DNA of 64,000 nt from a virus (taxonomy: Duplodnaviria > Caudoviricetes). The DNA lies in IMG/VR virus record IMGVR_UViG_3300049844_000087, positions 14,423 through 78,422 of that record, one strand, 5' to 3'. Positions 4,730-63,913 of this stretch are shown piece after piece (the stretch's first letter is position 1; the number at the start of each line of letters is the position of its first letter). Made by a program: the position numbers and the translations under genes. The notes beneath the pieces were generated by a model. The model was not told where the DNA came from, made no database searches, and worked only from the letters and a program-made list of their open reading frames with translations.

Positions 4730-4730
4730 A

Positions 4731-29631: not shown

Positions 29632-29646
29632 GTCTCAAAGTTAGAC
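29632..29646. promoter_or_regulatory. Palindrome GTCTCA-AAG-TTAGAC overlapping the -10 box
   Basis: 1 mismatch to GTCTCA-N3-TGAGAC; same variant as the copy at 51132. Confidence 0.55.
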
Positions 29647-29680: not shown

Positions 29681-29695
29681 TAACGCACTGCGTCA
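29681..29695. promoter_or_regulatory. Palindrome TAACGCA-C-TGCGTCA (second operator family)
   Basis: Matches copies at 48415, 48537 and 48675. Confidence 0.55.
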
Positions 29696-30169: not shown

Positions 30170-30247
30170 TGCGGGATGGACTGGAAGTAGTGCCAGCTTA
30201 GGCTCATAACCTAAACGATGTGAGTGCAAGTCTCACTCCCGCAACCA
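30170..30247 (+). tRNA. tRNA with CAT anticodon, initiator(fMet)-like
   Basis: TGCGGGA/TCCCGCA acceptor plus ACCA; TTAGG-CTCATAA-CCTAA anticodon arm; GTGAG-TGCAAGT-CTCAC T arm. Confidence 0.9.
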
Positions 30248-30316
30248 GTCCACAACAGCCAGTGTTGGTCCGAGCTGGAGGAAGAGTGGGTTTCGGACCC
30301 CATTTTGAGGAGAGGT

Positions 30317-36663: not shown

Positions 36664-36927
36664 GTGATTAAAGTAAAAGGAATAGAAGATTCAGAACTTG
36701 AGTGGAACTATACTTCTCCACCTAAGTTTTACAAGAAAATCAGCAAGACTCCAGACTCAGATGGAATCTTTAAAGTAGAAGTTTTTAAGCTGAAGAGTTT
36801 TAACGTTTTCACTAAGGAAGCTGTTTATGTGAAAGCAAAGAACGAGAAAATGCGTTCTACTCTTCCAGCAGAGCAACAGTTTAATTATGCTACGCCTAAG
36901 AAACGTGGCTATGATATTGAAGATTAA
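36664..36927 (+). CDS. Hypothetical protein
   Basis: GTG start after AGGAGG. Confidence 0.6.
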   Translation: MIKVKGIEDSELEWNYTSPPKFYKKISKTPDSDGIFKVEVFKLKSFNVFTKEAVYVKAKNEKMRSTLPAEQQFNYATPKKRGYDIED

Positions 36928-36952
36928 TAACCGAAGTAACATAGGAGGGAAA

Positions 36953-37462
36953 ATGTCTACTTCAAAAACGCAGAATAATAAATTGGCCGTAACCGTAGCT
37001 GCTTCTAGCCGCTATAAAATCCAAAAGAACGGAGTTATTAAAAAACTCACGTCTAGTGGAAATTATCGTGCAATTGGCACAGAAAGGCACGGATATAACG
37101 TTATATCTGTTGGCGGTAAAAAAATCGTCACAGCTCGAATCTTGGCAGCAAAGCAGTATTTACAACTTGGCTTTTCTCCTCAGTACGTTGTCGAGCTTTT
37201 GAATAAACGAGTGGTGGTTCGCAGAAATGGTAAAAGCCTTGACGACCGAAGAGTAAATCTTACGGCTGTAACTTCTACAGCACTTGTTAGAAAAGAGACT
37301 ACAAAACGTTTAACGCAAAAACAAATTGATCGAATGGTCGAATTGTTTTTCGATGGTTACTCTGTTGCAAAAATTGCTCGTCGATTTCGACGTAAAGTCT
37401 CTCGTTCTCACATCAGTCGCATTATTCGCAAAGAACTCGGTATTGAAACGGTAGGAGCATAA
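36953..37462 (+). CDS. Degenerate NUMOD4/HNH-like protein with C-terminal HTH
   Basis: YKIQKNG.I..., RRNGKSLDDRRVNL where HxxGxxxNN..xNL is expected; LTQKQI..M..LF.DGYSVAKIARRF...SRSHISRI HTH. Confidence 0.55.
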   Translation: MSTSKTQNNKLAVTVAASSRYKIQKNGVIKKLTSSGNYRAIGTERHGYNVISVGGKKIVTARILAAKQYLQLGFSPQYVVELLNKRVVVRRNGKSLDDRRVNLTAVTSTALVRKETTKRLTQKQIDRMVELFFDGYSVAKIARRFRRKVSRSHISRIIRKELGIETVGA

Positions 37463-38593: not shown

Positions 38594-38859
38594 ACAAACG
38601 TCAACAAATAAACGCCGAAATATTAAAACAGCTAGAAGCAGCAAACTCTGCCCTACCTGATCAACGTTTTAGCCAGTTGCTTGTGAATGCGGGGATAACG
38701 CACGACGTATCTAAGAATTTAGAAGGATGGCAAGCTCCTGTTCACATGGTTTTTTATAACGAAGAGTCTGAAGTTACTTTGAAGCGTCTTCTAGAAACAC
38801 TGGAAGACCTTTACGCAAAGATGTTGGAGGGATCTGATGTTGATCGTGAAGAAGTGTAA
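38590..38859 (+). CDS. Hypothetical protein
   Basis: PDQRFSQLL.N.G....FY.ES..TL.RL phage pattern. Confidence 0.6.
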   Translation: MNKRQQINAEILKQLEAANSALPDQRFSQLLVNAGITHDVSKNLEGWQAPVHMVFYNEESEVTLKRLLETLEDLYAKMLEGSDVDREEV

Positions 38860-39190
38860 ATACGGTAGGGGAGTTTTTACTACTGCCAAAATAGAAGCTG
38901 GCGATGTTCTATTGGTGGATGATCTATTGCTGATTACTCCTGAAGATAGACTTGGAAGTCTTACCCTACGGCGTTATGATTTTGCTTTTCACGATACTAA
39001 GGAAGCTGAGAGTGGAATTGCGTTAGGTCTGGCATCTTTGCTTAATCATTCTTCTAGGCCAAATGCTGAGTTCGATACGGCGTATAATAGTAAAGGCTTG
39101 CCTGTAGTTTTTGTAACGGCGATCAAAGACATTAAAGCTGGCTCTCAAATTACTATTGATTACGGCTACGATCCTTTGGAGGTTACATGA
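38837..39190 (+). CDS. SET-domain protein (putative Lys methyltransferase)
   Basis: YGRGVFT, SLLNHSSRPNA, TAIKDIKAGSQITIDYG. Confidence 0.9.
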   Translation: MLIVKKCKYGRGVFTTAKIEAGDVLLVDDLLLITPEDRLGSLTLRRYDFAFHDTKEAESGIALGLASLLNHSSRPNAEFDTAYNSKGLPVVFVTAIKDIKAGSQITIDYGYDPLEVT

Positions 39191-48286: not shown

Positions 48287-48529
48287 ATGATGGGACGATC
48301 TGTGCGGAAATTAAGTGACCGACTCGAAACCGCAGTTTTCTGGACGTGCTTAATCGGAACTTCGATTGCCGTCCTGACGATCCTATTCTTTAAAGGTGCC
48401 ACCAAAGAAACCGTTAACGCAGTGCGTCAGAAGATACGTCCTACTTGTAGCAAACGTTCCTGCCCACTTCCACCGGAGTTCGGAATTCCTTCCGATGAGC
48501 CCTCCGAACCCGAAGATTTACGCAAATAG
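48287..48529 (+). CDS. Small membrane protein, last gene of middle block
   Basis: TM helix; contains a TAACGCAGTGCGTCA site. Confidence 0.5.
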   Translation: MMGRSVRKLSDRLETAVFWTCLIGTSIAVLTILFFKGATKETVNAVRQKIRPTCSKRSCPLPPEFGIPSDEPSEPEDLRK

Positions 48530-48689
48530 TAATTTATGACACCATGCGTCATTTAGGTGTGCAAAAATTACAAAAAGTAGTAGAACTATCAAGAACTTAT
48601 TACACACTATAAAAAAAATTTTTCAATCAGAATTTTGACCCGATGGAACCAAACTTTCGGGGCGGTTGAAATCTTGACGCAGTGCGTCA
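48415..48689. repeat. Three 15-bp palindromes TGACGCA-N-TGCGTCA
   Basis: 48415 TAACGCAGTGCGTCA, 48537 TGACACCATGCGTCA, 48675 TGACGCAGTGCGTCA. Confidence 0.7.
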
Positions 48690-48799
48690 TCTAATATAAT
48701 ACAAAAAAATTTTGTGACAGACTACTAGGCACAGGTATTGGGCTCGGCACTGCAAGGCAGCTATCCCCCCGTAACCACTAGGGAATCCCATATTGATAC

Positions 48800-48827
48800 A
48801 TTGATGATAATGTATATTATCGTCAGA
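48800..48827. other. dif-like tyrosine-recombinase site
   Basis: ATTGATGATAA-TGTATA-TTATCGTCAGA: 11-6-11 layout, core ATAATGTATATTAT identical to E. coli dif, arms nearly symmetric. Confidence 0.7.
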
Positions 48828-49025
48828 GTCTCATTTTGAGACGCTCATTTTGTTTTTTCTTTTTTATCTTATAAGGTCTTGAAAGTTTAGGATTGAAAGC
48901 CTTATGCGCTCGACTAGATACTGTCTAGACGGCTTTCGTCTGTCTTGCAAGCCGTTGACTTTCGTCTTGAAACCGCTGTCAGTCTCATTCTGAGAATTTA
49001 TTTTTGATTTTTTTGCTTTCAAGCC

Positions 49026-49052
49026 TTAAGTCCTGTCAATTGACGCCGATAA
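49026..49052 (+). promoter_or_regulatory. sigma28-type promoter 1
   Basis: TTAAGTCC-11-GCCGATAA. Confidence 0.7.
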
Positions 49053-49099
49053 GTATAAGGTCAAGACAAGCAAGTCTTGCAAAACAAAGGAGTATCAAA

Positions 49100-49351
49100 A
49101 TGAAACGAAATTCAATCAACGGACATCTTGTTTCAATATGGAACGAAATCGTTGACCAACTAAGTCTGTCTCAATATGAGTCAACTATGGGTGGCGACAT
49201 GTCTTATAAGTCTAAGGCGGAAAGGGCAATGCAAGTGTCTCGAAATAAGACGGTTCATGCCTTATGTCTCGAATTGATAAACGTCTATGATTCTCATTTC
49301 GGGACAAGTGCCTTAACTGTCTCAAATAGAGACTTTTCTGATTTTGAGTGA
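49100..49351 (+). CDS. Early hypothetical protein
   Basis: ATG 49100 after AAAGGAGTATCAAA. Confidence 0.7.
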   Translation: MKRNSINGHLVSIWNEIVDQLSLSQYESTMGGDMSYKSKAERAMQVSRNKTVHALCLELINVYDSHFGTSALTVSNRDFSDFE

Positions 49352-49383
49352 TTTTCACGGTCTGTCAATATAAGGCTTTCGTC

Positions 49384-49415
49384 AAGGCGGCGGTTTCAAG
49401 ACCGCCGTTTTATTT
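49384..49415 (+). terminator. Intrinsic terminator
   Basis: GGCGGCGGT-TTCAAG-ACCGCCGT then TTTTATTTTT. Confidence 0.7.
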
Positions 49416-49606
49416 TTGCTTATCCTTATCAGTCCTGAAAGCCGTTGACCTGTCTTGTCTGTCCTTATGCCTTTCGGTCTGTCTTATCCTGTCTTGTCCT
49501 TATGTTTCCTTATACGGTCTTAAGACTTTCAATTTATTTTTTGCTGTCTAAGGCATTGAATTCAAGGTCGAATCTCATTTTGAGAATAAATAGTTGACTT
49601 TTTCTC

Positions 49607-49633
49607 TCAAGTTTTATAAACTGAAACCGATAA
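49607..49633 (+). promoter_or_regulatory. sigma28-type promoter 2, overlapping sigma70-like TTGACT-17-TAAACT (49594-49622)
   Basis: TCAAGTTT-11-ACCGATAA. Confidence 0.8.
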
Positions 49634-49681
49634 GACAGTATAAGCAAGTCAAGACGGCTTGCAAAACAAAGGAGTATCAAA

Positions 49682-49855
49682 ATGAGAATACCTAAGTTGC
49701 CAATTGGACAAGCGAACGTGTGTATCAAAAAGATACGGACAGCGAAAGCGCAAGGCTGCAAAATGCTGAAAGGCTGGAAAGCGATGAAATCGGCTCAAAT
49801 TGAGACGGCTTTCAATACGCCAGTCCTTTGTATCAAAGTGAGACGTGCGGCATAA
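49682..49855 (+). CDS. Early 57-aa basic protein
   Basis: Below track cutoff; MRIPKLPIGQANVCIKKIRTAK... after the conserved SD. Confidence 0.7.
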   Translation: MRIPKLPIGQANVCIKKIRTAKAQGCKMLKGWKAMKSAQIETAFNTPVLCIKVRRAA

Positions 49856-49884
49856 GTTTTTTTTGATTTTTTTGCTTTCAGGTC

Positions 49885-49911
49885 TCAAGTTTATTTTTGA
49901 TTGACCGATAA
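49885..49911 (+). promoter_or_regulatory. sigma28-type promoter 3
   Basis: TCAAGTTT-11-ACCGATAA. Confidence 0.8.
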
Positions 49912-49961
49912 GACAGTATAAGCGGCGAAATGATTCGACCGCAAAAACAAGGAGTATCAAA

Positions 49962-50756
49962 ATGAGTCAGATTCAAGTTTTCGACAAAAATGCAGGTTTC
50001 AACGTATCAGAACGATACAAGGCTGTTAACACGGCGACTTTGGTGTCTCAATTCGAGGCGGCTGGCTATACAGTGTCTCAAGTTAAGACGGCTCGTGTTC
50101 GCTTGCCTGAAAAGCAAGGCTTTCAAAAACACCTTATCAGATTGAGACATCCGTCGTTGACAGTCAATGCGCTTTCAGGCTTGACGCCCGAAATCGTTGT
50201 CTCAAATTCATACGATGGCACGGCGGCTTTCCGTCTCATGATGGGAATTTTCCGCATTGTCTGCTCGAACGGTCTCATTGTGGGACAGGCTTATGAGTCA
50301 ATTCGAGTCGTCCACGTTGGCGACGCATTGACTAAGGTCTTGCAAGCCGCAAATCGAGTTCAGTCTCAAACTGATACGATTGCGTCTCAAATCGAGAAAT
50401 GGTCGTCAATCCAATTGACCGATGCACAAGCGTCTCAATTTGCGACAGCAGCAAGCAAGTTGCTTTTGCCGTCTCAAAGTGATACAAACGTGATTCCATT
50501 GGTTCGTTCTGAGACACTTTTGAAAGTCCGCCGTCTTGACGATAGGTCTCAAGACCTTTGGACCGTATTCAATCGAATTCAGGAAAATGCTTTGCAAGGC
50601 GGTCTGTCTTATACTCGACTCGGCGGTCAAGGTCAAGTCCGAAACATGACGGCACGTCGAATCAATTCGATTGACCGATCAATCGAAGTCAATCGGGCCT
50701 TATGGGATCTTGCGTCTCAGATTGAGACAAGCGGTGGCATTATTCAAGCCGCATAA
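49962..50756 (+). CDS. DUF932/DUF945 family protein
   Basis: SERY......L......G....Q...R...K..FQKH.IRLR...PEIVV.NSYDG..AF.LM.GIFR.VCSNGLIVG. Confidence 0.85.
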   Translation: MSQIQVFDKNAGFNVSERYKAVNTATLVSQFEAAGYTVSQVKTARVRLPEKQGFQKHLIRLRHPSLTVNALSGLTPEIVVSNSYDGTAAFRLMMGIFRIVCSNGLIVGQAYESIRVVHVGDALTKVLQAANRVQSQTDTIASQIEKWSSIQLTDAQASQFATAASKLLLPSQSDTNVIPLVRSETLLKVRRLDDRSQDLWTVFNRIQENALQGGLSYTRLGGQGQVRNMTARRINSIDRSIEVNRALWDLASQIETSGGIIQAA

Positions 50757-50771
50757 GGTCAAGACCTTGAA

Positions 50772-50805
50772 ACGGCGGCGCTTTCGAGCGCCGTCGATTT
50801 TTTTG
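50772..50805 (+). terminator. Intrinsic terminator
   Basis: ACGGCGGCGC-TTTCGA-GCGCCGT hairpin then T-tract. Confidence 0.65.
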
Positions 50806-50814
50806 ATTTTTGCC

Positions 50815-50841
50815 TTAAGTTTTATTTTTTTGCGCCGATAA
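50815..50841 (+). promoter_or_regulatory. sigma28-type promoter 4
   Basis: TTAAGTTT-11-GCCGATAA. Confidence 0.85.
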
Positions 50842-50885
50842 GCATAAGGTCAAGGCATTGACGCCGAGACCGAAGGAGTATCAAA

Positions 50886-51173
50886 ATGAGAACATTCAAG
50901 TTTATAAGGTTTCAAGACTTGACAGGGACAAGCGGCGTCGGTCACGTTGCAAGCGGTCAAGTTGACGCAAGCGGCTTGACTCAAGTCCGCTGGACCGTTG
51001 ACGCAAGACTTGCGGACGGCTCGACTCGCAAGATCAATTCAGTGACTCAATTTGAGACGTGGACTGATGCGGTCTTGCTTCACGGTCACGGCGGACGGAC
51101 TGTCTTAGTTTGGGACGACACCAACGAAACTGTCTCAGATTTAGACATCTTAGGCTTGAAAGCCGCCGCATAA
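50886..51173 (+). CDS. Conserved phage hypothetical protein
   Basis: MRTF...R..D.TG.SG.G.VA.G......G....RW......HGHGG.T..VW. Confidence 0.75.
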   Translation: MRTFKFIRFQDLTGTSGVGHVASGQVDASGLTQVRWTVDARLADGSTRKINSVTQFETWTDAVLLHGHGGRTVLVWDDTNETVSDLDILGLKAAA

Positions 51174-51202
51174 GTTTTTTTTGATTTTTTTGCTTTCAGG
51201 TC

Positions 51203-51229
51203 TCAAGTTTTAAAACTTTCGACCGATAA
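51203..51229 (+). promoter_or_regulatory. sigma28-type promoter 5
   Basis: TCAAGTTT-11-ACCGATAA. Confidence 0.8.
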
Positions 51230-51277
51230 GACAGTATAAGCAAGTCAAGACGGCTTGCAAAACAAAGGAGTATCAAA

Positions 51278-52024
51278 ATGAGATTGTTAACTGAAGCCCA
51301 TGCCAATGCGAAAACCGCAAAAAATGCCTCAAAAGGAGATTTTCTGTCCTATATTTTGCATTTTGCGCCTTATAAGCTTTCAGGCGTCAACGTCTGTCCA
51401 ATGGCAAGCCGTGGATGCGCCGCCGCTTGCCTTAACACGGCTGGACGTGGCCGTTTCGATTCGATACAACAGGCTCGTATCAAAAAGACACAACGATTTT
51501 TTAAAGACCGTCAAGGTTTCCTTGCGGACTTAGTTAAGGACTTGCAAGCGGTCGAGCGCAAGGCAAAAAAACACGGCTTGCAAGCGGTCGTGAGACTCAA
51601 CGGGACAAGTGACATTGACTGGACCGCTGTCAAGACAGACGACGGTCAAAACGTGTTCGAGCGTTTCAAAACGATACAGTTTTACGACTATACCAAAGTG
51701 ATACGCCGTCTCGAAAAGATGCGTCTCAATCCGATACCTAATTATCATTTGACATTTTCTCGAAGTGAGTCAAATCATGCTGACTGTCTCAAAGCGATAC
51801 AGTTAGGTTTCAACGTTGCCGCCGTGTTTCAAACTGAGGCGTTTCCTGAAACCTTTGAAAGCCGTCCAGTGATTGACGGCGACTCTCACGACTTGCGTTT
51901 CCTTGACTTGAAACCGCTGGACGGTCAAGGCGCTTTCGTTGCCTTGAAAGCCAAAGGACAGGCAAAAAAAGACCTTTCAGGTTTCGTGATTCAACTTGAG
52001 ACAGCCATCGGAAAGGTGGCTTAA
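51278..52024 (+). CDS. GP88-family protein (radical-SAM-related)
   Basis: NAKT.K, VCPMASRGCAAACL, RLNGTSDI, QFYDYTK, YHLTFSRSE, DGD.HDLRFLD. Confidence 0.85.
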   Translation: MRLLTEAHANAKTAKNASKGDFLSYILHFAPYKLSGVNVCPMASRGCAAACLNTAGRGRFDSIQQARIKKTQRFFKDRQGFLADLVKDLQAVERKAKKHGLQAVVRLNGTSDIDWTAVKTDDGQNVFERFKTIQFYDYTKVIRRLEKMRLNPIPNYHLTFSRSESNHADCLKAIQLGFNVAAVFQTEAFPETFESRPVIDGDSHDLRFLDLKPLDGQGAFVALKAKGQAKKDLSGFVIQLETAIGKVA

Positions 52025-52025
52025 T

Positions 52026-52217
52026 ATGAGACAAATCAAATTAAAACAGTCAATGATTCAAGATGAGACACTATGCTGTCCGTACTGCATGGACGAAGTG
52101 TCTCAAGATGATACAGGTTGTTGTGGCGAGTCGTCGGCTCATTTTGAGAAAGCTTATGTGACTCAAGATGAGACATATCTTGACTCTGAGGTCGAAATCA
52201 TTGACGACTCAAATTGA
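52026..52217 (+). CDS. Small Cys-rich acidic protein
   Basis: CCPYC...GCCGES; ATG 52026. Confidence 0.6.
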   Translation: MRQIKLKQSMIQDETLCCPYCMDEVSQDDTGCCGESSAHFEKAYVTQDETYLDSEVEIIDDSN

Positions 52218-52243
52218 TTCAAAAATAAAGTTGACCGAAAGTC

Positions 52244-52270
52244 TCAAGTTTTAAAACTTTCGACCGATAA
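52244..52270 (+). promoter_or_regulatory. sigma28-type promoter 6
   Basis: TCAAGTTT-11-ACCGATAA. Confidence 0.8.
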
Positions 52271-52334
52271 GGATAAGGACAGCAAAAAAACCGAGACCGT
52301 CAAGACGGCGGTCTCAAAACAAAGGAGTATCAAA

Positions 52335-52814
52335 ATGGGATATACGCATTATTTCACTTTCAAAAAAGCGCCGAAAGGCAAGGCGTCTCAAATCGAGACG
52401 AACTATCAAAAGGCATTGATTGACTGTCAACGTATCATTTTGGCATATAGCAACGTCAACGGCGGTCTGTCCGGTTTCAGTGCCCATACCAAATTGGGAC
52501 AGTATGGCGGTCTCAATGTGAATGGCTCAAAAGAAGACGGTCACGAGACTTTCGTCTTGCGTGAACACTTTTCTCAAAATGAGTCATTCAATTTTTGCAA
52601 GACCGCTCGAAAGCCTTATGATACGGTCGTCACGGCTTGCCTTATCGTCTTGTCTTATCGACTCGGCGCTTGCATTGACGTGTCAAGCGACGGCGACGCA
52701 ACGGACTGGACCGAAGGCTTGCGGCTTGCGCAAAAAGTTCTCAAATTGAAACGATTACAAATTCCATCAGGTGTCTCAAATCGAGACAACGATTCAATGG
52801 ATGAGTCGGCTTGA
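52335..52814 (+). CDS. Conserved phage hypothetical protein (MGYTHY family)
   Basis: MGYTHY...HETF...FNFCKTARKPYD..V.A.L...SSDG. Confidence 0.75.
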   Translation: MGYTHYFTFKKAPKGKASQIETNYQKALIDCQRIILAYSNVNGGLSGFSAHTKLGQYGGLNVNGSKEDGHETFVLREHFSQNESFNFCKTARKPYDTVVTACLIVLSYRLGACIDVSSDGDATDWTEGLRLAQKVLKLKRLQIPSGVSNRDNDSMDESA

Positions 52815-52878
52815 TACTCCACGCCCCTGTCTCATTTTGGGGCAGGGGCTTTCTTAACATAAGCAAAGGAGTCTCACA

Positions 52879-53073
52879 ATGGAACGTATCAAAATGCAAC
52901 GAAGTGTTTGGTGGCCTATCAAATTGAAACAAGGTCAAACTGTCTCATTTCAAGGCAAGACTTATAAGGTCGTGTCTCAAACTGAGAAACCTTCTGATTC
53001 ATGGTGTTTCAGAATGAGATACTACACGTCTCTAATCGAGACAGAAATGGAGTCTCAAAATGGGATCAACTAA
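52879..53073 (+). CDS. Early hypothetical protein
   Basis: SD AAAGGAG. Confidence 0.6.
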   Translation: MERIKMQRSVWWPIKLKQGQTVSFQGKTYKVVSQTEKPSDSWCFRMRYYTSLIETEMESQNGIN

Positions 53074-53665
53074 TATCGAATTGATACAAAAAGGAAAGCT
53101 GTCTCGAAATGAGATTTACGACGCTTTCAAAAATCAGCAAGATCAAGACCGTCTCGAAAATGGACATCAATCGGGATATTCTGGCGACTTTCAAACTGTC
53201 TCAAAAGTAGACTATCGACTTGATCAAGTCTTTACGTCTCAATCTGAGGCACATGATTTTTGTTTGAAACATGCCTCAAAATGGGACACTGTGGTGGCCG
53301 TCTATTTTCTTGACCTGAAAGTCGAAAGCAAGCGCATTGATAAGGCAAGGCAAGCGGTCAAGGCATTGACTCAAGACCTTGCAAGCCTTGAATCGACGCC
53401 GCTTGATAAGTCCAGCGGTTTCAAGACTTGCGGCGCTTGCAAGTCTCGACTTTCAATGAGTCACGTCAAGCGGTCTTGCTGTCCAGTCTGTCAATCGGAC
53501 TTAAGACCGAAAGCCTTAGTCAAGCGCATTGAAAGCCTGAAAGCAAAAATCAAGGCGGCGCAAGACAGGCTCGAAAGTCTTGTCAAGTCCGAAAGGCAAA
53601 AAGCATTGACGAAAGCAAAACCGTCTCAATTTAGTACGATGCTGGCTGGCTGGGGAGCGTGTTAA
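53060..53665 (+). CDS. Early protein with Zn ribbon and coiled coils
   Basis: GH.SGYSGD, CGACKS...CCPVC; ends AGWGAC. Confidence 0.7.
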   Translation: MGSTNIELIQKGKLSRNEIYDAFKNQQDQDRLENGHQSGYSGDFQTVSKVDYRLDQVFTSQSEAHDFCLKHASKWDTVVAVYFLDLKVESKRIDKARQAVKALTQDLASLESTPLDKSSGFKTCGACKSRLSMSHVKRSCCPVCQSDLRPKALVKRIESLKAKIKAAQDRLESLVKSERQKALTKAKPSQFSTMLAGWGAC

Positions 53666-53684
53666 TTTGAGACACAAAAATCCC

Positions 53685-53712
53685 TTAAGTTTTTGAGCGT
53701 TTCGACCGATAA
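53685..53712 (+). promoter_or_regulatory. sigma28-type promoter 7
   Basis: TTAAGTTT-12-ACCGATAA. Confidence 0.7.
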
Positions 53713-53743
53713 GGTTTCAGACAATAAACAAAGGAGTATCAAA

Positions 53744-53992
53744 ATGAGTCAATCAAATGTTATCAAGTTGAATGATCGTCGAGCAAGTCCAGTCAATGAG
53801 GAAAGTCTTTTGCTGGTCAACCTTGCGCAAGTATTGATCGAAGTCGTGAGGCAACACGGAGCCCACACGACATTGACAGCGGTCCAAGGCATGATTCAAG
53901 AGGCACAAAAACAAGTCCGCACCGAGCGTCAACACAAGCCGACAAAGACCAATCTACCTGTCTCAAAACGAGCCGTTGGGGGTGCCAAGTGA
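53744..53992 (+). CDS. Early hypothetical protein
   Basis: ATG 53744 after the conserved SD. Confidence 0.65.
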   Translation: MSQSNVIKLNDRRASPVNEESLLLVNLAQVLIEVVRQHGAHTTLTAVQGMIQEAQKQVRTERQHKPTKTNLPVSKRAVGGAK

Positions 53993-54198
53993 AATGTCTC
54001 ATTGTGAAGCATACCCTTGGCGGTCGTTCTTGGTACATGGTCCAGCAAGGCGCTTTGACCTTATCGACTCCGCTCGACACTTTCGAGCAAGCTACCGAGT
54101 GGATCAAGTCAATGGCTGGTGTCCAGCGTCTCGGATGCTACCGCATAAGCGACGACTTGACAGCGGTCCATTTTGAAGAGTCGAAAGGAGTCTCATAA
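53989..54198 (+). CDS. Early hypothetical protein
   Basis: GTGA overlap. Confidence 0.5.
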   Translation: MKCLIVKHTLGGRSWYMVQQGALTLSTPLDTFEQATEWIKSMAGVQRLGCYRISDDLTAVHFEESKGVS

Positions 54199-54500
54199 TG
54201 GAACAGCCTAAGCTTATCGCAAGGCTCGAAGAGATTGTCAAAGGTATTGACAGACATCAACGAGTCAATGCGTCGGACATGCCAATGCTGGCACAGTTTT
54301 TGAAAGTAGAGATTGCAAGGCTTAAGCGTATCAATTCAGCGCAAACAGTCGAGCGCATGAGACAAATTTCGGAGCGGCTTAGCGACTTAAGTCCAAAGAT
54401 TGACAGCGGTCGTTTCAAGTATTCCGAAAAGCAAGAAAAGGACAGGCTTGTCAATGAGTATCTAGAATTGGAACAACAAATTGAAGGGGTTTCAAAATGA
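54198..54500 (+). CDS. Early coiled-coil protein
   Basis: SD AAAGGAG, TAATG overlap. Confidence 0.6.
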   Translation: MEQPKLIARLEEIVKGIDRHQRVNASDMPMLAQFLKVEIARLKRINSAQTVERMRQISERLSDLSPKIDSGRFKYSEKQEKDRLVNEYLELEQQIEGVSK

Positions 54501-54715
54501 AACGTAATGCGTATCTCTTTGAGACAGATGCCTTTCAAGTGAGAGTTTACAACGAAGCCGAGACCGTTGACATGTTTGGTCAAGACTACCTCGAAGAGTA
54601 CGGTCACACGGTCCCGATTGAATTGCTCGAAAGGTATCGAAAGGCTTTCGTCGAAATGCAAGCCGTACAAGATCAATTGAGAGCCATTATAAAGACTCAA
54701 GAAAAGGAGTATTAA
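54497..54715 (+). CDS. Early hypothetical protein
   Basis: ATGA overlap. Confidence 0.6.
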   Translation: MKRNAYLFETDAFQVRVYNEAETVDMFGQDYLEEYGHTVPIELLERYRKAFVEMQAVQDQLRAIIKTQEKEY

Positions 54716-54716
54716 A

Positions 54717-54938
54717 ATGATACTAATTAAAGGTCAATCCAAATATGCCAGAGTTGAGCGTCTTGTCCATAAGTTAGACGATGACATACTGTCTTGGATC
54801 GAGTCACTTGAGGAGTCGGGTTTCGTGATCTTGTTCACCAATCTACCGTCTCACATTAATACACATGAGGTGTACGCCGCAATTCTACTTGATCAGTTCG
54901 CAGATATGTATCTACCTGAGACATCTACAGGTCACTAG
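54717..54938 (+). CDS. Early hypothetical protein
   Basis: SD AAGGAG. Confidence 0.55.
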   Translation: MILIKGQSKYARVERLVHKLDDDILSWIESLEESGFVILFTNLPSHINTHEVYAAILLDQFADMYLPETSTGH

Positions 54939-54975
54939 GGTGACATTTTTTTATTGTAATACTTGATAATTTTGC

Positions 54976-55003
54976 TAAAGTATTTCAATCAACCTACCGA
55001 TGA
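54976..55003 (+). promoter_or_regulatory. Possible variant sigma28 promoter
   Basis: TAAAGTAT-12-ACCGATGA, -10 inside CCTAC...GTAGG hairpin. Confidence 0.45.
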
Positions 55004-55027
55004 GAGTAGGAGAAAGGCAAGGGACCA

Positions 55028-55816
55028 ATGTTTAAGTTTGAATCAATAGACCAATTAGACACAAAGGGCAACACAAGCTGGCTCATTGAGGGACTTTTGC
55101 CAGAGTCGTCAACTTGTCTCGTGGCAGGTGATCCCAAGACGAGAAAGTCTTGGTTGGCAGGGGAATTGCTAGTCAGTATTGCCACAGGTGAGAAGTGTTT
55201 CGGAGTTTACAACGTTGTCAAGCAAGGTCGAGTGATGATGATACAAGGCGAGGACAGCGGTGCAATCATTCGAGAGCGTCTAGAGCAAATCAATCGAGCC
55301 AAGCAAGGCAGTGCCAAGGCATTGAAAGAGAATGTTTCAATCGTGGCAGGTCAAAGCTTTGCGCTTGATAATGATGAACACTTTGAGGCATTGCGCTTGC
55401 AAGTCTTAAAGGAAAGGCCATTGCTTATCATTTTAGACCCTTTGGTCCGTCTCATTCCGAACACTGCCGAAGGTTCAACGTCTCAGATGTCTAAGATTTT
55501 GACAAAGCTTCGTCACTTGCAACGTGACAGCGGGACATCAATCATGCTGGTGCATCACAACAAGACATCGAAGTCTAAGAATGCCGCTGACAATATCCGA
55601 GGCAGTTCAGACTTGCGGTCCTGGTATGATGCGGCGTATTTCCTGACCAAGCCAGTCGGACACGTCACGCAAATTGATTTTGAATTCAAGGCTTTCGGCG
55701 AGCAACCTGCTTTCTTCTTTGAATTAAAGAATGCGAACACTGGACTTGCGCCGATGGGACTTGTATCAATGGAAGACATTAGAAAGTTGGTTAAAAATGA
55801 AAACGATATTGTATAA
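55028..55816 (+). CDS. AAA_25 / RecA-fold (RepA-helicase-like) ATPase
   Basis: WLIEGLLP, GDPKTRKSW, MIQGED, IILDPL, LVHHNK, IRGSS. Confidence 0.85.
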   Translation: MFKFESIDQLDTKGNTSWLIEGLLPESSTCLVAGDPKTRKSWLAGELLVSIATGEKCFGVYNVVKQGRVMMIQGEDSGAIIRERLEQINRAKQGSAKALKENVSIVAGQSFALDNDEHFEALRLQVLKERPLLIILDPLVRLIPNTAEGSTSQMSKILTKLRHLQRDSGTSIMLVHHNKTSKSKNAADNIRGSSDLRSWYDAAYFLTKPVGHVTQIDFEFKAFGEQPAFFFELKNANTGLAPMGLVSMEDIRKLVKNENDIV

Positions 55817-56033
55817 ACGACACATTGCATTCCATATTGGAGACGTTTTACTTGTCTCATTTTCAGACAAGCCTTCTCGTTTTCAAGTTGTTGAAGTTAA
55901 CAAGCGCAAAAACATTTTAAAAATTGAGGTATTAGAGGATCATTACAAAGATCCGTTTCAAGTTGGAGCAGTCGTCGATATAGGAACGCAGATTTTTAAA
56001 AAGTATTGGTTTTTTAATTTTGAAAACCGCTAA
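55797..56033 (+). CDS. SH3/KOW-like small protein
   Basis: FHIGDVLLV; ATG 55797. Confidence 0.5.
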   Translation: MKTILYKRHIAFHIGDVLLVSFSDKPSRFQVVEVNKRKNILKIEVLEDHYKDPFQVGAVVDIGTQIFKKYWFFNFENR

Positions 56034-56057
56034 AGTTTTTCAGAATTGTGCCGATAA
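56031..56057 (+). promoter_or_regulatory. sigma28-type promoter 8 (perfect consensus)
   Basis: TAAAGTTT-11-GCCGATAA. Confidence 0.9.
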
Positions 56058-56077
56058 GCATTGAAATAGGAGAGAAC

Positions 56078-56290
56078 ATGGGACCGTATGCTTACGCAAT
56101 TAAAATTAACTATGGAAAGCAGAAAGTGCAAACGAGTCACAAAGCTTTGTTGCCAGACACGGCGATAAATATCGAACAATTGCAAGAGATTGTAGGCCAT
56201 AACACTTTTGTTTTTGTTGCAGAGGATAGCTCATTCTCGCAAGACATTTTTGTTTGTTGGAATACTTATCGAGATGAGACTGATGAATAG
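56078..56290 (+). CDS. Early hypothetical protein
   Basis: ATG 56078 after AGGAG. Confidence 0.55.
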   Translation: MGPYAYAIKINYGKQKVQTSHKALLPDTAINIEQLQEIVGHNTFVFVAEDSSFSQDIFVCWNTYRDETDE

Positions 56291-56359
56291 CAAGCGTCTC
56301 GAATTGCGAAAGACGAAGCTTACATGGCTGAGTATAGAAAAAGAAATTCAAAATAACGC

Positions 56360-56386
56360 TAAAGTTTTTTGGAAAGCTGCCGATAA
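56360..56386 (+). promoter_or_regulatory. sigma28-type promoter 9 (perfect consensus), before rIIA
   Basis: TAAAGTTT-11-GCCGATAA. Confidence 0.9.
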
Positions 56387-56431
56387 GTATTATATGAAAG
56401 GCAATGAAGCCGAGTAACAAGGAGTAATAAA

Positions 56432-58498
56432 ATGAGAATCGCAGGACACGGTAACAAATACGAAAGCAATCAACAAACTGAGACACAGTCGTTTGGCATC
56501 GGTGATGCAAGCGTGGTGATCGAAATCCTGCGCAATAGATTGTATGAGCATAAGATTCGCACACTCGTTCAAGAGTATATGAGCAATGCTCGTGATGCTC
56601 ATCGTGAGGCTGGACAGACACGACGCATTGAAGTTGTGGCACCGACTCAACTTGAGCCAACATTCAAGGTTCGAGACTTTGGTCCTGGCATTAGTCCAGA
56701 CCGCATGGCTAACGTGTTCGTGCTTTACGGAGCATCAACAAAGCGTCAAAACAATACACAAACTGGTGGCTTTGGCATCGGTGCTAAGTCCGCATGGTCT
56801 TATGCTGATGGTTTCATCATCGTGTCAACGGTCAACGGCACTCGTCGCACTTATCATGCACACGTTGGAGCGTCTAACGTTGGTCAACTTGACTTGCTGT
56901 CTACTGAAAAGACAGACGATCCGAATGGATGCGAAATTCAAGTGGCAGTCAATCCTCGTGATGTTACAGAATTTTGTAACTCGATCAAGCGTGCATGTTA
57001 CTTCTGGAATAAAGAAGAGACTCCACTGCTTAAGAATGTGACACTCCCTGATGCGCTGTCAACTTATGATGTCAACGCTTTGAGCATCGTACCTAGCAAC
57101 GTGTCAATGCCTGACTTCTTGAATGCTTATGGTCGCACTGACTTGCTAGTCGTTGACGGCATCATTTACAACCTTAACAGAGACTTGCTCGACAAGGTGC
57201 CACAGTTGCGAGACCTTCGCAACGAATTGAATGGCTCGATGGTGATCCGTATCCCTAATGGTCTTGTGCAAGTATCAGCAAGCCGTGAGAAGCTTGACGA
57301 CTCAGACTTCACTCGTAAAGGTCTTGCTAAGATTGGCACGAAACTATTGACTGACGTAAAGAAACACGTTTCAGATAAGATCGGCGCAATCTCTACTGTC
57401 AAAGGTTTCGTTGAGACTTATCACAGCATGTTCCGTTTCTTTGTGATGCAGAACAACGAGTACAAAGGTTTCCGTTTCGATGGACAGTTCCTTTACACTC
57501 CCCTTTTGGGTTCAGTTCACTTCGCAAAGTACACTGAATTCAGAGACAAGGTCAAGGCATCGTCTACCAAGGGAATTCCTTTCGAGCACATGGACAGAAT
57601 TTTCTTGCAAACTAAAGACGAGAATGCGGTCACATTCAATCGCAGAGTTCGAGCGTATCTCGCAAACAACCCTGAAATGTATGTGATCAGAGAGCGTCAA
57701 ACTACCTCTATCGACTCGACTGGAGCAACGGTCCAATTGAAGTTTGATGTTCCACCTGCGAAAGCCATGAAAGAATTGCAAGCTGTCTTGAACAAGTTTC
57801 AAGACTTTCATTCGATCAGTTTCGTAGTTCCACCTCGAACGCCGAAAGCCATGAAAGCCGCAAAGCTTGCGTCACAGCAAAGTTTTCACTACTTGAATGG
57901 CTGGGGCCGAGATACTCAAAACACGACCGTCACAGACTTGCAGTCCAAAGGTCGGGAGTACATTTACTTGCTGGTCTCTGAGTGGCAGAACGAAGGAAAG
58001 TACAAGTACAATCCGATGATCAAAGAATTCGGCGGTGACAGACGTGATCCTAAGTGCAAAAAGCCGATCTTTATCGCCGTGTCCAATACCACTGCGGACA
58101 TCATTAAGGACGAAGCTGGCTTCACTCCTTATGCTGATTGGATTGCCGGAGTCAAGTTAACTAATGATCTGCGTCTCAGAATGATGAATGCTAAAGCGTT
58201 GAATTCAGACGTGATTGAGAAACTGTCTCAACTTGAGGGTGTTAAGAATAAAAAGTTGACTAAAATGGTCGATCATTATAAGCTGATGAAGAAAGCCGCA
58301 AGTCAAGTTCACGGTTCGGAAGTACCTGACATGCTGGTAAAGATGTTTAAAGATGATGCGGACTATGTATCTTTCCTTGAGCAAGATCAAGAATTGAAAA
58401 CCTTGATCAATGATAAGTATCCGTTGCTTAAGCACATGGACCGATACTCGCACGCTGAATGTAAACGTGAAATGACTTGGTATTTGAACAATAAATAA
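56432..58498 (+). CDS. rIIA: RIIA-like protein (GHKL ATPase N-terminus)
   Basis: ILRNRLYEHKIRTLVQEYMSNARDAH, VRDFGPGIS, YGASTK, GGFGIGAKS. Confidence 0.85.
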   Translation: MRIAGHGNKYESNQQTETQSFGIGDASVVIEILRNRLYEHKIRTLVQEYMSNARDAHREAGQTRRIEVVAPTQLEPTFKVRDFGPGISPDRMANVFVLYGASTKRQNNTQTGGFGIGAKSAWSYADGFIIVSTVNGTRRTYHAHVGASNVGQLDLLSTEKTDDPNGCEIQVAVNPRDVTEFCNSIKRACYFWNKEETPLLKNVTLPDALSTYDVNALSIVPSNVSMPDFLNAYGRTDLLVVDGIIYNLNRDLLDKVPQLRDLRNELNGSMVIRIPNGLVQVSASREKLDDSDFTRKGLAKIGTKLLTDVKKHVSDKIGAISTVKGFVETYHSMFRFFVMQNNEYKGFRFDGQFLYTPLLGSVHFAKYTEFRDKVKASSTKGIPFEHMDRIFLQTKDENAVTFNRRVRAYLANNPEMYVIRERQTTSIDSTGATVQLKFDVPPAKAMKELQAVLNKFQDFHSISFVVPPRTPKAMKAAKLASQQSFHYLNGWGRDTQNTTVTDLQSKGREYIYLLVSEWQNEGKYKYNPMIKEFGGDRRDPKCKKPIFIAVSNTTADIIKDEAGFTPYADWIAGVKLTNDLRLRMMNAKALNSDVIEKLSQLEGVKNKKLTKMVDHYKLMKKAASQVHGSEVPDMLVKMFKDDADYVSFLEQDQELKTLINDKYPLLKHMDRYSHAECKREMTWYLNNK

Positions 58499-58527
58499 AC
58501 AGACCGAAAGGTCAGAAAGAAGGATTT

Positions 58528-58851
58528 ATGGAAACAATTAGCATTAACCGCATCATGGCTCGATCATTTATGAATACGTTGCAGTACGCAATGGTGATTG
58601 ATCAAGCCGCTCCAGTATTGCAATTAGACCGAGTCGGAGCCTTGCGGTTTCGATTGCTGAGCGATGCACAGTTGTCGGTTCTTTACAGCCTTGCGGCGCA
58701 TGTAACTGACCGCAATGAGGTCTTGGCCGAATATGATCTGATGATAAACACTGTTAAAGAGAAGTCACCTGACAATGCTTTCGTGCTTTCAGCATTGACA
58801 GAAGGTCGAGAGGCTTTGACAGAATTGTTAATTCAAGCAAAAAGTCACTAA
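58528..58851 (+). CDS. Hypothetical protein between rIIA and rIIB
   Basis: SD GAAGGA. Confidence 0.55.
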   Translation: METISINRIMARSFMNTLQYAMVIDQAAPVLQLDRVGALRFRLLSDAQLSVLYSLAAHVTDRNEVLAEYDLMINTVKEKSPDNAFVLSALTEGREALTELLIQAKSH

Positions 58852-58875
58852 AGTTTTTTGAAAAGTTGCCGATAA
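58849..58875 (+). promoter_or_regulatory. sigma28-type promoter 10 (perfect consensus), before rIIB
   Basis: TAAAGTTT-11-GCCGATAA. Confidence 0.9.
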
Positions 58876-58898
58876 GAGTAATAACAAAGGAGAATTGT

Positions 58899-61064: not shown

Positions 61065-61778
61065 ATGAGTAAAGCCTTGATTTTCTTATCTACTGTGTTC
61101 ATAGTTTCTTGCATATCATCCTTTGGACGAGATGTACCGAAGCCTGTGGTAAGTAAGAGAATCAAGGTTATGATCATTGACACTGGCATCTACACCCATC
61201 CTAAGATAAAGCCGTACCTATCTACCAAGAATAGAAAATCTGAGCTAGTGGACACTCACGGACACGGCACTCACGTCGCAGGTTTAGTTTTATACGGGCC
61301 TGAATTGAATGATCCAGTTTGTAAAGAAGTTGAAGTCTACTCTTGTAGGTTTTTTGGGCCGCAGAGTCATTCTACTGATACTTGTTTGGAGTACGCCAAT
61401 AAGCTAGGAGTAGAGTTTATCAATTTTTCTGGTGGTGGTTACGAGTATATGAAAGAAGAAGTGGTAGAGATTAGACGCTCAAAGGCCACGGTTGTTGTTG
61501 CTGCCGGAAATGACTCAGTAAACATATCAACAAAACCTTATTATCCTGCTGCCTTGCCGCTTAAAAATTTAATTGCAGTCGGCAACGGCGTAAGTGAACG
61601 ATTAAAATCAAAGAGTTCTAACTTTGGCTTGAGCAAACTAGTTTGGCGTGACGGCGAAGCCAAGAAATCCTTTTCACAGAAAGGCTTTGCTTATATGAGT
61701 GGAACTTCTCAAGCCACGGCAATCTACACACACGAACTACTAAAGAAGCGTTGTCAAGACTTTCGGTCTACTAAGTAG
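61065..61778 (+). CDS. Subtilase (S8) serine protease, probably a lipoprotein
   Basis: IIDTG, HGHGTHVAG, AAGND, MSGTSQA; N-terminal IVSC. Confidence 0.92.
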   Translation: MSKALIFLSTVFIVSCISSFGRDVPKPVVSKRIKVMIIDTGIYTHPKIKPYLSTKNRKSELVDTHGHGTHVAGLVLYGPELNDPVCKEVEVYSCRFFGPQSHSTDTCLEYANKLGVEFINFSGGGYEYMKEEVVEIRRSKATVVVAAGNDSVNISTKPYYPAALPLKNLIAVGNGVSERLKSKSSNFGLSKLVWRDGEAKKSFSQKGFAYMSGTSQATAIYTHELLKKRCQDFRSTK

Positions 61779-61975
61779 TCCTTAAGCTGCTGAAGAAACC
61801 TTTCACCATCAGCATCCAAGCACTGAAGGGCATTTCGATTTTGCTTTCTCGGAATGGGTTTCTCTAGGTACTCAACCACTTCTTCAAGTGTGAGACCGAA
61901 GTCAAGCTTGTCACCATACGATAGCATGTGGACCAACTCAACTAAGAGGCGATCCCTTTCCGACAACCTTCTCAT
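61754..61975 (-). CDS. Hypothetical protein
   Basis: 73 aa, last gene of converging minus block. Confidence 0.5.
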   Translation of the reverse strand: MRRLSERDRLLVELVHMLSYGDKLDFGLTLEEVVEYLEKPIPRKQNRNALQCLDADGERFLQQLKDYLVDRKS

Positions 61976-62331
61976 TACAACACCGTGATAGTTGAGATTA
62001 CTCGCATCAATTCTGAGTGTACGGCTTGGTTAAGCTGCGTACTTTCTTCAGAAGGGACTGCGTGTTTCAACTGTTTTGCGGCTTCAACGGCGTCCATTAC
62101 TTCAAGCAGAGTCATGCCTACTAGCTCACGGCCAGAAACATAACCTCCACCTGGGCCACGCACAGAGCGAAGAGCGCCATGAATGCGCAAAGCCCTAGCA
62201 ACTTGCTCCAAGAAGTTAAGATCAAGTTGGTGCTTTTGTGCCACCGACTTCAATTTCACTGGACGACCATCTGCCTGGTCTCGAACTTCTCGCAAGAGAG
62301 TTAGAGCATATTGAACTTTTGCAGTGATCAT
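61975..62331 (-). CDS. Rrf2-family winged-helix regulator without Fe-S cysteines
   Basis: YAL..L, LEQV...L...G.L.SVRGPGGGY; no Cys; ATG 62331. Confidence 0.85.
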   Translation of the reverse strand: MITAKVQYALTLLREVRDQADGRPVKLKSVAQKHQLDLNFLEQVARALRIHGALRSVRGPGGGYVSGRELVGMTLLEVMDAVEAAKQLKHAVPSEESTQLNQAVHSELMRVISTITVL

Positions 62332-62332
62332 T

Positions 62333-63079
62333 TTAGATACCTCCGATAAACTCTCGAAGCAGTTCGAGAGGAACAAATAAACTACCATACACTTTACTTC
62401 TGTCTTTTGCATGACCTGTGCGCTTCTCTGACGTAAGGAGATTAGACATTACGCCTACCACTTCGCCATCACTATTAATTACCGCAGAGCCACTGATACC
62501 GTACCAAGCAAGCATGTTTGACTCGTTGTAAATACCCAGCCAATAAGGATCATGTTTCTTAATCACACCTTTCAAGTAGACAGGACCGCCTTGAGGAAAT
62601 CCATACGAAGAAACGACATCGCCAATTTTATAACTCTTAGCAATCTTCAAAGTATGTTTAAAGCGCATGGGAGTGTAGATTAAACAAAGATCAGCATTCT
62701 GTGACACTTTAATGATCTGTCCTGGGCTCTTCTTTCCATTTCGTCTAGTCACTTCAGCAAATCCGAATCTATAGACATCTTGCCCATACGTTCGCTGTTC
62801 TTGCGGCCTGAATATTCCGTTAGAGCAGACGTGCTTATTAGTAACGATGAAGGCACCTTGTTCAGTCTGACTGACTACAAAACCAGTTCCACCACTGCAC
62901 GCATTTCTATAAATACACACTGATAGTTGAACCGTAGCATCTTTCAAGTCTTCTTCGATCTGCGTAGCTCTGTACTCTTTGTACTCTAAGTTGAGGTGTC
63001 TAACTCCCCCAACTGCCGCAACTAGCAGGGCAAAGACTAGAGCAATTCTCACGCCTTTAATAATTCTTCGTAGTATCAC
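62333..63079 (-). CDS. Trypsin-like (S1) serine protease, membrane anchored
   Basis: GTGF, VTNKHVC, DLCL, GISGSAV; N-terminal TM. Confidence 0.9.
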   Translation of the reverse strand: MILRRIIKGVRIALVFALLVAAVGGVRHLNLEYKEYRATQIEEDLKDATVQLSVCIYRNACSGGTGFVVSQTEQGAFIVTNKHVCSNGIFRPQEQRTYGQDVYRFGFAEVTRRNGKKSPGQIIKVSQNADLCLIYTPMRFKHTLKIAKSYKIGDVVSSYGFPQGGPVYLKGVIKKHDPYWLGIYNESNMLAWYGISGSAVINSDGEVVGVMSNLLTSEKRTGHAKDRSKVYGSLFVPLELLREFIGGI

Positions 63080-63087
63080 AACATCTC

Positions 63088-63342
63088 CTAATTGAAAGTT
63101 TCCGTATTGGAATTTGTTTCATTGATAAGACCTGTCAAAAAGTTTAAGATGTTGCCCAAATCAGTAATCTCTTGAAACATCTCAAGAGTAGCTGGATGTT
63201 GGTCTCCAAATTGTTCTTTGACTGAAAGGAATACATTAGTTCTATCCTGGTGGTAAACTGTTAGCGCCTGTATTCCTGCTAAAAAATCTTTGCGCTTGAT
63301 GACCACATTTCTTTCTCTCTTTTTAAGTTTCTTCTGTGACAT
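63088..63342 (-). CDS. Hypothetical protein
   Basis: 84-aa ORF in operon. Confidence 0.55.
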   Translation of the reverse strand: MSQKKLKKRERNVVIKRKDFLAGIQALTVYHQDRTNVFLSVKEQFGDQHPATLEMFQEITDLGNILNFLTGLINETNSNTETFN

Positions 63343-63913
63343 GATCCACCAAGCCTAGTTCAAGAACTTCTTCTGCACGAATGTAATGGTCTTTCGCACA
63401 TAGTTTCTTCCACTGCTTAGCAGATATTTTTTTGCCTGACAGACGCTCATACAAGTGGTACATTTGCTCTTGTACTTTATTGTGGTGCGCAAGGTCGTGA
63501 TTCATATCGTCAGTCTTACCTCGGATACTGTCACTAGCTTGATGCACCATCACCCAAGAGTTTGGCCCAATTGAACGTTCGTCTCCGGCAGCTAAAATAA
63601 ATGTTGCAGCAGACATGATCTTCCCCAAGCCTCGGGTTATTACCGTACAAGGGGAAGCTTTGATTCGGTCAATAATACCGAACATGTCGTACACCGACCC
63701 TCCATAAGAGGAGACCTCGATGCGAATGGGCTTATCAGGCGCATTCTCCATTTCGTCGAAAGCTTTCTGGATAACTTCCAGAGAACATTCGTCGATTTCA
63801 TCATTTAGATAGATGACTCGCTCTTTGAAGTTGACGTTATACTCGAATAAATTCTCGTAGTGCGTCGAATCTTTAGTGCGAGTCGAGTTAGTTTTGTTCG
63901 CTCGACTCGACAT
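63323..63913 (-). CDS. ClpP-like (S14) protease
   Basis: RVIYLNDEID, SSYGGSV, IMSAAT, MVHQ. Confidence 0.88.
   Translation of the reverse strand: MSSRANKTNSTRTKDSTHYENLFEYNVNFKERVIYLNDEIDECSLEVIQKAFDEMENAPDKPIRIEVSSYGGSVYDMFGIIDRIKASPCTVITRGLGKIMSAATFILAAGDERSIGPNSWVMVHQASDSIRGKTDDMNHDLAHHNKVQEQMYHLYERLSGKKISAKQWKKLCAKDHYIRAEEVLELGLVDHVTEET

Follow-up and report, generated by a model that had tools for sequence, protein, structure and literature searches.

Within a 64,000-nucleotide stretch of a contractile-tailed phage genome (the window: bases 14423-78422 of the 78,422-bp IMG/VR contig G000, 67% complete by CheckV) we found a dense array of a short interrupted palindrome that runs through a single block of small genes and the spacers between them. 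The array would be a set of double-stranded DNA sites for one homodimeric, sequence-specific protein, and the pattern of sites suggests silencing or timing of the block in the manner of the stoperators of mycobacteriophages, a reading for which, in our judgement, belief and doubt are evenly balanced.

48828..55868, no strand: palindrome array, about 60 copies of GTMTCA-WWN-TGAKAC at two mismatches or fewer, 21 of them at one mismatch or fewer

Allowing at most one mismatch, the word GTCTCA-N3-TGAGAC occurs 22 times in the 64 kb, compared with 0.19 +/- 0.44 times in 100 dinucleotide shuffles, none of which (0/100) reached 22. All but one of these matches (21/22) lie inside 48828-55868, the remaining one being at 29632. 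By number of mismatches, the block holds 2 perfect copies, 19 with one mismatch and 39 with two, 60 in total; a preliminary description of this DNA, which had counted at least 18 copies with no more than one mismatch and about 15 more with two, was therefore right in kind and too low in number. It had also proposed comparing the density over the whole genome with shuffled sequence, and this comparison gives a cluster confined to one block: the remaining 71 kb of the 78.4-kb contig have essentially no copies at up to two mismatches. The complete relative G001 (117,954 bp, its ends overlapping by 122 bp, assembling as a circle) likewise carries a single array cluster of about 9 kb, at 84-94 kb, and no second one. 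Copies are densest at 48.8-54.9 kb, with an overall density of about one site per 120 bp, and are unevenly spaced, never closer than 21 bp and with a median of about 60 bp. The refined consensus is Y-GTMTCA-WWN-TGAKAC-R, an interrupted palindrome of 15-17 bp with an A/T-rich 3-bp spacer and symmetric flanks (Y at -1, R at +1). The word first described is thus real, although as a consensus it has to be replaced, and its half-words are unequal in this genome, with 41 GTCTCA and 16 TGAGAC in the block. This asymmetry is not a property of the element, since it is absent in the relatives L032 (10:11) and L001 (9:10). Rfam at gathering thresholds returned nothing in the window, and searching the literature for an operator of this sequence gave primer sequences only.

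The copies are spread over spacers and reading frames in a way that points to the DNA itself. Sixteen of the 60 stand in spacers or across gene ends; the other 44 are intragenic, 27 of them in the frame that reads xSQxET and 9 and 8 in the other two. Where the frame would make TGA a stop codon, the triplet is altered in 8/8 copies. When synonymous codons were shuffled within each gene, 1.2 copies with at most one mismatch remained compared with 18 observed, and shuffling the order of codons within genes left 0.03. Because both shuffles destroy the signal, codon choice and amino-acid order must both be bent to the DNA word, and the synonymous shuffle indicates that selection acts on DNA. The preliminary description had claimed as much, on the grounds that copies stand between and within genes in different frames and mostly avoid the one with the stop, and each of these points holds; local codon bias, which it had raised as a counter-explanation, cannot account for the enrichment.

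The substitutions inside the sites are equally informative. Across 211 sites pooled from the window and five relatives (6 genomes), changes in the left half recur in the mirrored positions of the right half at closely similar frequency: C3>A 26 and G13>T 24, C3>T 16 and its mirror 17, T2>A 13 and 12, C5>T 10 and 11, A6>G 14 and 19. Such a mirrored spectrum argues for identical subunits on two identical half-sites, that is for a homodimer and not for a hairpin, and fits a two-fold symmetric double-stranded DNA site to which a homodimer would bind. By the same spectrum the half-site tolerates C3>A, and T4 and C5 would be its critical bases.

The array covers about 14-15 small cassette genes, all on the + strand (49100..55816):

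49100-49351, +: g1
49682-49855, +: g2
49962-50756, +: DUF932
50886-51173, +: cassette gene
51278-52024, +: GP88
52026-52217, +: cassette gene
52335-52814, +: cassette gene
52879-53073, +: cassette gene
53060-53665, +: cassette gene
53744-53992, +: cassette gene
53989-54198, +: cassette gene
54198-54500, +: cassette gene
54497-54715, +: cassette gene
54717-54938, +: cassette gene
55028-55816, +: AAA_25, poor in sites

As DUF932, GP88 and, in relatives, an Acb5-like protein are encoded there, the block looks like an accessory or anti-defence island. Between 49 and 54 kb each gene has a repeated module of a T-rich terminator, a promoter, a leader and a GGAG ribosome site, and the promoters resemble those of sigma-28, the flagellar sigma factor:

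49016..58876, +: ten sigma-28 (FliA)-type promoters, CT[ACT]AAGTTTT-N11-CCGATAAG
49046, 49627, 49905, 50835, 51223, 52264, 53706, 56051, 56380 and 58869, +: starts of their -10 elements

The published sigma-28 consensus is TAAAGTTT-n11-GCCGATAA (PMC2859248). The best match here is CTAAAGTTTTT-N-GCCGATAAG; at 10 sites the -35, the 11-bp spacer and the -10 agree, and these ten are the only promoters of the type in the contig. No protein with a sigma region 2 was found in G000 or in the complete G001, which would imply that a host flagellar sigma factor serves the block together with rIIA/rIIB. A literature search for phages using sigma-28 promoters found no paper. The array covers the first seven sigma-28-type units and stays within the segment that these promoters serve, with sites upstream of promoters, within genes and over the interval between ribosome site and ATG (GGAG-TMTCA-AAA-TG) of most cassettes.

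The array is kept in at least seven relatives, with individual sites turning over. It stands next to sigma-28-type promoters in L001, L002, L009, L031, L032 and L036, and the flanking proteins of array-bearing relatives are 55-88% identical to those of the window. Among orthologs of the DUF932 gene, some sites keep their position and others are lineage-specific, replaced by sites bases to tens of bases away. The comparison of motif with synonymous-site conservation, also proposed in the preliminary description, came out mildly in favour at synonymous positions (73% conserved inside sites and 58% outside, p=0.03) but not for overall base identity (0.69 inside, 0.74 outside). Since the bases of the sites are no better conserved than their surroundings, selection appears to keep density more than position.

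In more distant relatives the word itself is exchanged. The 119-kb contig L034 from the Joint Genome Institute (JGI), whose block was reached via its rIIA homolog (36% identical), has a homologous block with DUF932 and GP88, in which we found no GTCTCA sites and no sigma-28-type promoters. It has instead an array of GCATGC at 3700-8400, with 17 copies in 4.7 kb compared with 1 in the other 17.3 kb; these copies are genic and intergenic, and one touches a dif-like site. Its cassettes have sigma-70-type promoters with the -35 inside a TTGACnC...GCGTCAA palindrome, and a repeated leader and ribosome-site module, AAGGGAAGGGATAACAAA-ATG, ahead of the genes, unlike that of the window. A third lineage, L010, has neither sigma-28-type promoters nor a palindrome array, and carries three perfect sigma-54-type elements, TGGCATC-N4-CTTTGC, ahead of block open reading frames (ORFs) at 780-794, 1905-1919 and 3422-3436. 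Judging by these promoter sequences, the three related lineages seem to drive the same block via three host sigma factors. As the distant relative keeps both block and array with a different palindrome, the idea of the array is older than its word, and the word changes with the promoter class.

One copy stands apart from the array, at the head of the virion operon:

29632..29646: lone copy outside the array, reading GTCTAACTTTGAGAC on the - strand, abutting the ATG of the P0001 gene
29377..29631, -: P0001, 84 amino acids, helix-turn-helix (HTH) protein, first gene of the virion operon
29681-29695, 48415-48429, 48537-48551 and 48675-48689: second palindrome, TGACGCA-N-TGCGTCA, overlapping the TTGACG -35 boxes of sigma-70-like promoters
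61975..62331, -: phage winged-helix regulator of the Rrf2 family, lacking a Cys cluster, within the ClpP/trypsin/FKBP operon

The lone copy overlaps the predicted -10 of the P0001 promoter, TTGACA-17-TAACTT, and is kept with one mismatch in 3/4 array-bearing genomes. Because this -10 lies next to the ATG, a leaderless P0001 transcript is implied, and the copy, being on promoter DNA upstream of the predicted start, cannot act as RNA. The operon runs from P0001 through two genes to the major capsid gene, and P0001 is first in all relatives. P0001 passes the Pfam threshold for sigma-70 region 4 and has an invariant Cys-x-Cys...Cys...His set, a metal-type motif. Its structure model comprises a small N-terminal part, the HTH and a long C-terminal helix, and Foldseek against the PDB gave weak sigma-region-4 matches only (E ~0.5).

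P0001 is the best candidate for the reader of the array, an assignment we hold possible rather than probable. Its helix could equally pair with the second palindrome, which is also at the P0001 promoter; this palindrome has 5 copies at up to two mismatches compared with 0.2 expected, and it is kept in relatives more widely than the GTCTCA word, with one copy upstream of the P0001 promoter. As a protein with sigma region 4 only, P0001 could also act on RNA polymerase rather than on DNA. The phage Rrf2 protein is a doubtful choice of reader. It is present in every GTCTCA-array lineage sampled, with only a distant paralog elsewhere, in a comparison where the G004 contig ends before the Rrf2 locus. 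Rrf2 sites are usually longer than the array word. The ClpP, trypsin-like protease and FKBP operon that contains its gene (61754-63913, - strand, in the window) occurs in all lineages. An unrecognised small protein of the block or a host factor are further candidates, and the phage also encodes an HTH_7-like protein (36887-37462); even with loose thresholds, neither Pfam nor PHROGs gave a DNA-binding domain in the small proteins of the block, and g1 is weakened as a reader by L010, which has a g1 homolog but no array.

We hypothesise that a dimeric protein would fill the array and repress or time the block in stoperator fashion, by roadblocks inside transcription units and by covering most ribosome-binding and start sites. 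The same protein would act on the lone copy that covers the virion-operon -10, and that copy would couple the cassette block to late expression, either by direct repression or through titration by the array; the link would be autoregulation if P0001 is the reader, and titration if the array is a sink. The swap of motif and promoter class in the distant relative is what a lineage-specific pair of regulator and operator would produce. The preliminary description had seen a loading zone for a protein that protects, segregates, pulls in or silences DNA supposed to be expressed first, with short single-stranded hairpins as an alternative. A set of DNA-protein sites is what half-site symmetry, the A/T-rich spacer, conservation with turnover and the promoter copy all favour, while the hairpin alternative falls; and among the four roles only silencing or timing is backed, indirectly, by sites at the sigma-28-type units and at the virion-operon -10. 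A more elaborate titration device seems to us decidedly unlikely: about 60 decoy operators per genome copy would keep P0001 off the operator at its own -10, the switch from the anti-defence block, driven by host sigma-28, to the making of virions would be timed jointly by DNA replication and the build-up of P0001, the filled array would silence the block, and relatives would have rebuilt the circuit with other words and with sigma-70 and sigma-54.

Several observations weigh against silencing or timing by a homodimer. The three best sigma-28-type promoters (56051, 56380, 58869), together with rIIA and rIIB, have no sites, and the array therefore cannot simply be equated with the regulon of this promoter class. 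Relative to the promoters, sites lie at -47 to -113 and at +30 to +49, and none covers a -35 or -10. Helical phasing was tested at 10, 10.5 and 11 bp, and none was found. The change A12>G breaks the symmetry, with 32 cases compared with 2 for its mirror T4>C; it would retain a U-G pair in plus-strand RNA and is the sole residue of an RNA-type signal. Of the eight such copies in the window, 5 are TGA-to-TGG changes or ATG-G start contexts, which explains the change only in part. The promoter copy has 3 mismatches in G001. As to the reader, the putative recognition helix of P0001 is near-invariant, including in 49-63% identical homologs without the word at the promoter; no GCATGC was found at the promoter of the P0001 homolog (HTH) in the GCATGC lineage; and none of the candidate phage proteins examined could be tied to the motif.

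An array that organises DNA without acting on transcription, as a coat that protects, positions, partitions or recombines the segment (centromere-like, a nuclease shield, or crossovers for cassette exchange), is an alternative that we consider unlikely. It draws on the left boundary of the array, which begins exactly at a dif-like site, and on a tyrosine recombinase encoded by the phage:

48550..48827, +: conserved non-coding stretch, left bound of the array, ending in the dif-like site
48800-48827: dif-like 28-bp site with central ATAATGTATATTAT, touching the first, perfect motif copy
33636-34472, +: tyrosine recombinase, about 14 kb from the dif-like site

The arms of the dif-like site change together across relatives, and its 6-bp centre is reversed in three of them. 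The gene content of the block varies among relatives, several metagenomic contigs break inside it, and most sites are within genes, away from promoters, all of which would suit such a role. On the other hand, intragenic sites would be useless as cassette joints, known centromeres occupy a few hundred bp and not 7 kb of expressed genes, and the extra copy sits on a promoter -10. A scan of ORFs with Pfam and PHROGs, not exhaustive for the 40 kb missing from the fragment, turned up neither ParA nor ParB. Within the same boundary region, about 150 nt of conserved non-coding sequence (48700-48870, +) run from a TTGACG...TATAAT promoter to the first motif copy and a T-run, and from this layout the stretch could be a small RNA. 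As a structured RNA it was not upheld: covariation was confined to the dif-like arms (four sequences), which a symmetric recombinase site explains equally.

Quite unlikely, in our view, is a decoy array that titrates a host protein (a transcription factor or nucleoid protein), soaking it up as phage DNA replicates, with words that differ as hosts differ. The lack of a phage reader tied to the motif is compatible with it, as are the change of the motif with the sigma class of the block (sigma-28, sigma-70 and sigma-54-type in three lineages) and the selection of density rather than position, as expected in a sink. However, the same motif is kept over wide phage divergence, with flanking proteins down to 55% identity, and one copy is set precisely on a phage promoter.

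Much less probable is a target of a restriction-modification-like or other DNA-modifying enzyme. Both arrayed words do contain classical restriction sequences (type IIS in the case of GTCTC, type II in that of GCATGC), and the genome is under extreme restriction-type selection, with 37/64 palindromic hexamers absent from the 78 kb of the whole contig; but restriction pressure would give the opposite of enrichment, and the conserved unit is a dyad of 15-17 bp with an A/T-rich spacer, not a 5-mer. Outside the block the frequency of GTCTC and GAGAC is neutral, and a search of the complete relative G001 gave no N6/N4 methyltransferase domain.

The idea of RNA or single-stranded DNA hairpins (a 6-bp stem with a 3-nt loop), serving as processing, termination, translational or N4-type promoter signals, is similarly improbable. 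It would be suggested by the common strand of all block genes, by the copies that overlap most start codons, by the few TTT-loop copies that precede T-runs (48828, 48982, 52829, 55854), by the excess of GTCTCA on the coding strand in this genome and by the wobble pair that A12>G keeps. Yet a stem under selection should show compensation, and only 3/315 non-consensus pair positions are Watson-Crick compensated. With position 12 set aside, plus-strand wobble pairs number 65, barely above the minus-strand equivalent of 54; a perfect match is seen in just 2/60 copies, and two common changes, C3>A and G13>T, break the stem in the middle and do not co-occur. Moreover, the strand asymmetry is absent from L032 and L001, the promoter copy at 29632 is upstream of the transcript, and GCATGC, the swapped word of the distant relative, cannot form a hairpin. 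Selection for a peptide motif (S-Q-x-E/D-T in block proteins, for instance a protease or kinase site), brought to mind by the 27/44 coding copies in the xSQxET frame and by the ClpP, trypsin-like and S8 proteases of the phage, can practically be dismissed, given the 17 coding copies in the other two frames, the 16 intergenic ones and the loss of the signal under synonymous shuffling with protein sequence fixed (1.2 compared with 18).

The phage has only distant kinship to cultured phages. Its capsid protein is about 35% identical to that of SPO1-like Bacillus phages, and a nucleotide search of the array block against 50,697 phage records gave no match. The tail sheath and major capsid genes are on the - strand and rIIA/rIIB on the + strand. 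A search for the host via capsid relatives in genome collections returned only metagenome-assembled genome (MAG) bins from three phyla, with mis-binned contigs. The contig holds 646 copies of palindromic hexamers, where base composition predicts about 1311; AAGCTT, TTGCAA, CAATTG and AACGTT go against this general avoidance and are over-represented. In relatives L027-L030, and in L029 at 5677-8107, GGDEF, PilZ-like and HD-domain proteins (cyclic-di-GMP signalling) are encoded beside a divergent promoter region. Plus-strand metabolism genes of the window include:

30224-31231, +: class IV aminotransferase
32218-32892, +: ThyX
38837-39190, +: SET-domain protein

The aminotransferase ORF as listed begins inside a tRNA-Met (30170-30247); its true start is probably further downstream.

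Few dispersed operator arrays of phages are understood, and this one leaves its mark on the codons and the amino-acid sequences of over a dozen unrelated genes, in a block whose promoters seem to be served by the host's flagellar sigma factor. The swap of word and promoter class among relatives is a natural experiment for the search for the reader and for the exchange of regulatory vocabulary. Should the array prove to be a silencer or titration timer of an anti-defence island, it would be a compact and portable off-switch for a region with many promoters, of interest for phage biology and for the synthetic control of gene blocks.

Among known systems, one of the two nearest is that of the stoperators of Cluster A mycobacteriophages (the L5 gp71, Bxb1 and Trixie repressors), dispersed sites inside transcription units for which a block of elongation has been proposed, along with a classical operator role at a few promoters (PMC6550527). 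They are asymmetric 13-mers aligned with transcription, of which a genome of about 50 kb has 20-30 along its whole length, most of them in short gaps between genes, and their reader is a known immunity repressor (PMC6550527). As in Cluster A, tens of copies of a short word stand in transcribed regions, mostly off promoters, and the word co-varies with the lineage. In contrast to the one-way, asymmetric stoperators, the site described here is palindromic with mirrored substitutions; about three quarters of its copies are genic, some 60 of them occupy 7 kb of a genome of about 118 kb in one block of 7-9 kb, and it has candidate readers only. Cluster O mycobacteriophages carry a 17-bp dyad, TGTTCGG-NNN-CCGAACA, in more than 30 copies between and within genes, with reader and function unknown (PMC4351075). 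The two elements share inverted half-sites, a 3-bp A/T-rich spacer, more than 30 copies and genic as well as intergenic positions. They differ in the word, in its fidelity (2/60 perfect copies here, near-invariant copies in Cluster O) and in arrangement, the present array packing its copies about tenfold more densely into a single block whereas the Cluster O copies are genome-wide.

The KorB-OB/ParB-parS, matS, NBS and SBS arrays also combine multiple palindromic sites with a dimeric protein, and some of them regulate transcription at a distance; unlike the array described here, they are sparse (one site per kb to tens of kb) and mostly do not reshape coding sequence. Among the ORFs scanned, nothing resembled ParB, MatP, Noc or SlmA, and the motif fits none of these consensus sites, in agreement with the preliminary description, which had set it apart from parS, matS and NBS. 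The hyperplastic regions of T4-like phages are built of PeSL-type promoter/terminator cassettes, with a module of its own for each small accessory gene and a flexible gene content. The repeated intergenic modules of the present block resemble these cassettes, from which it differs by the intragenic palindrome and by promoters of sigma-28 rather than sigma-70 type. Dispersed operator arrays are thus already known in phages; this one stands out by its density and its confinement to one block.

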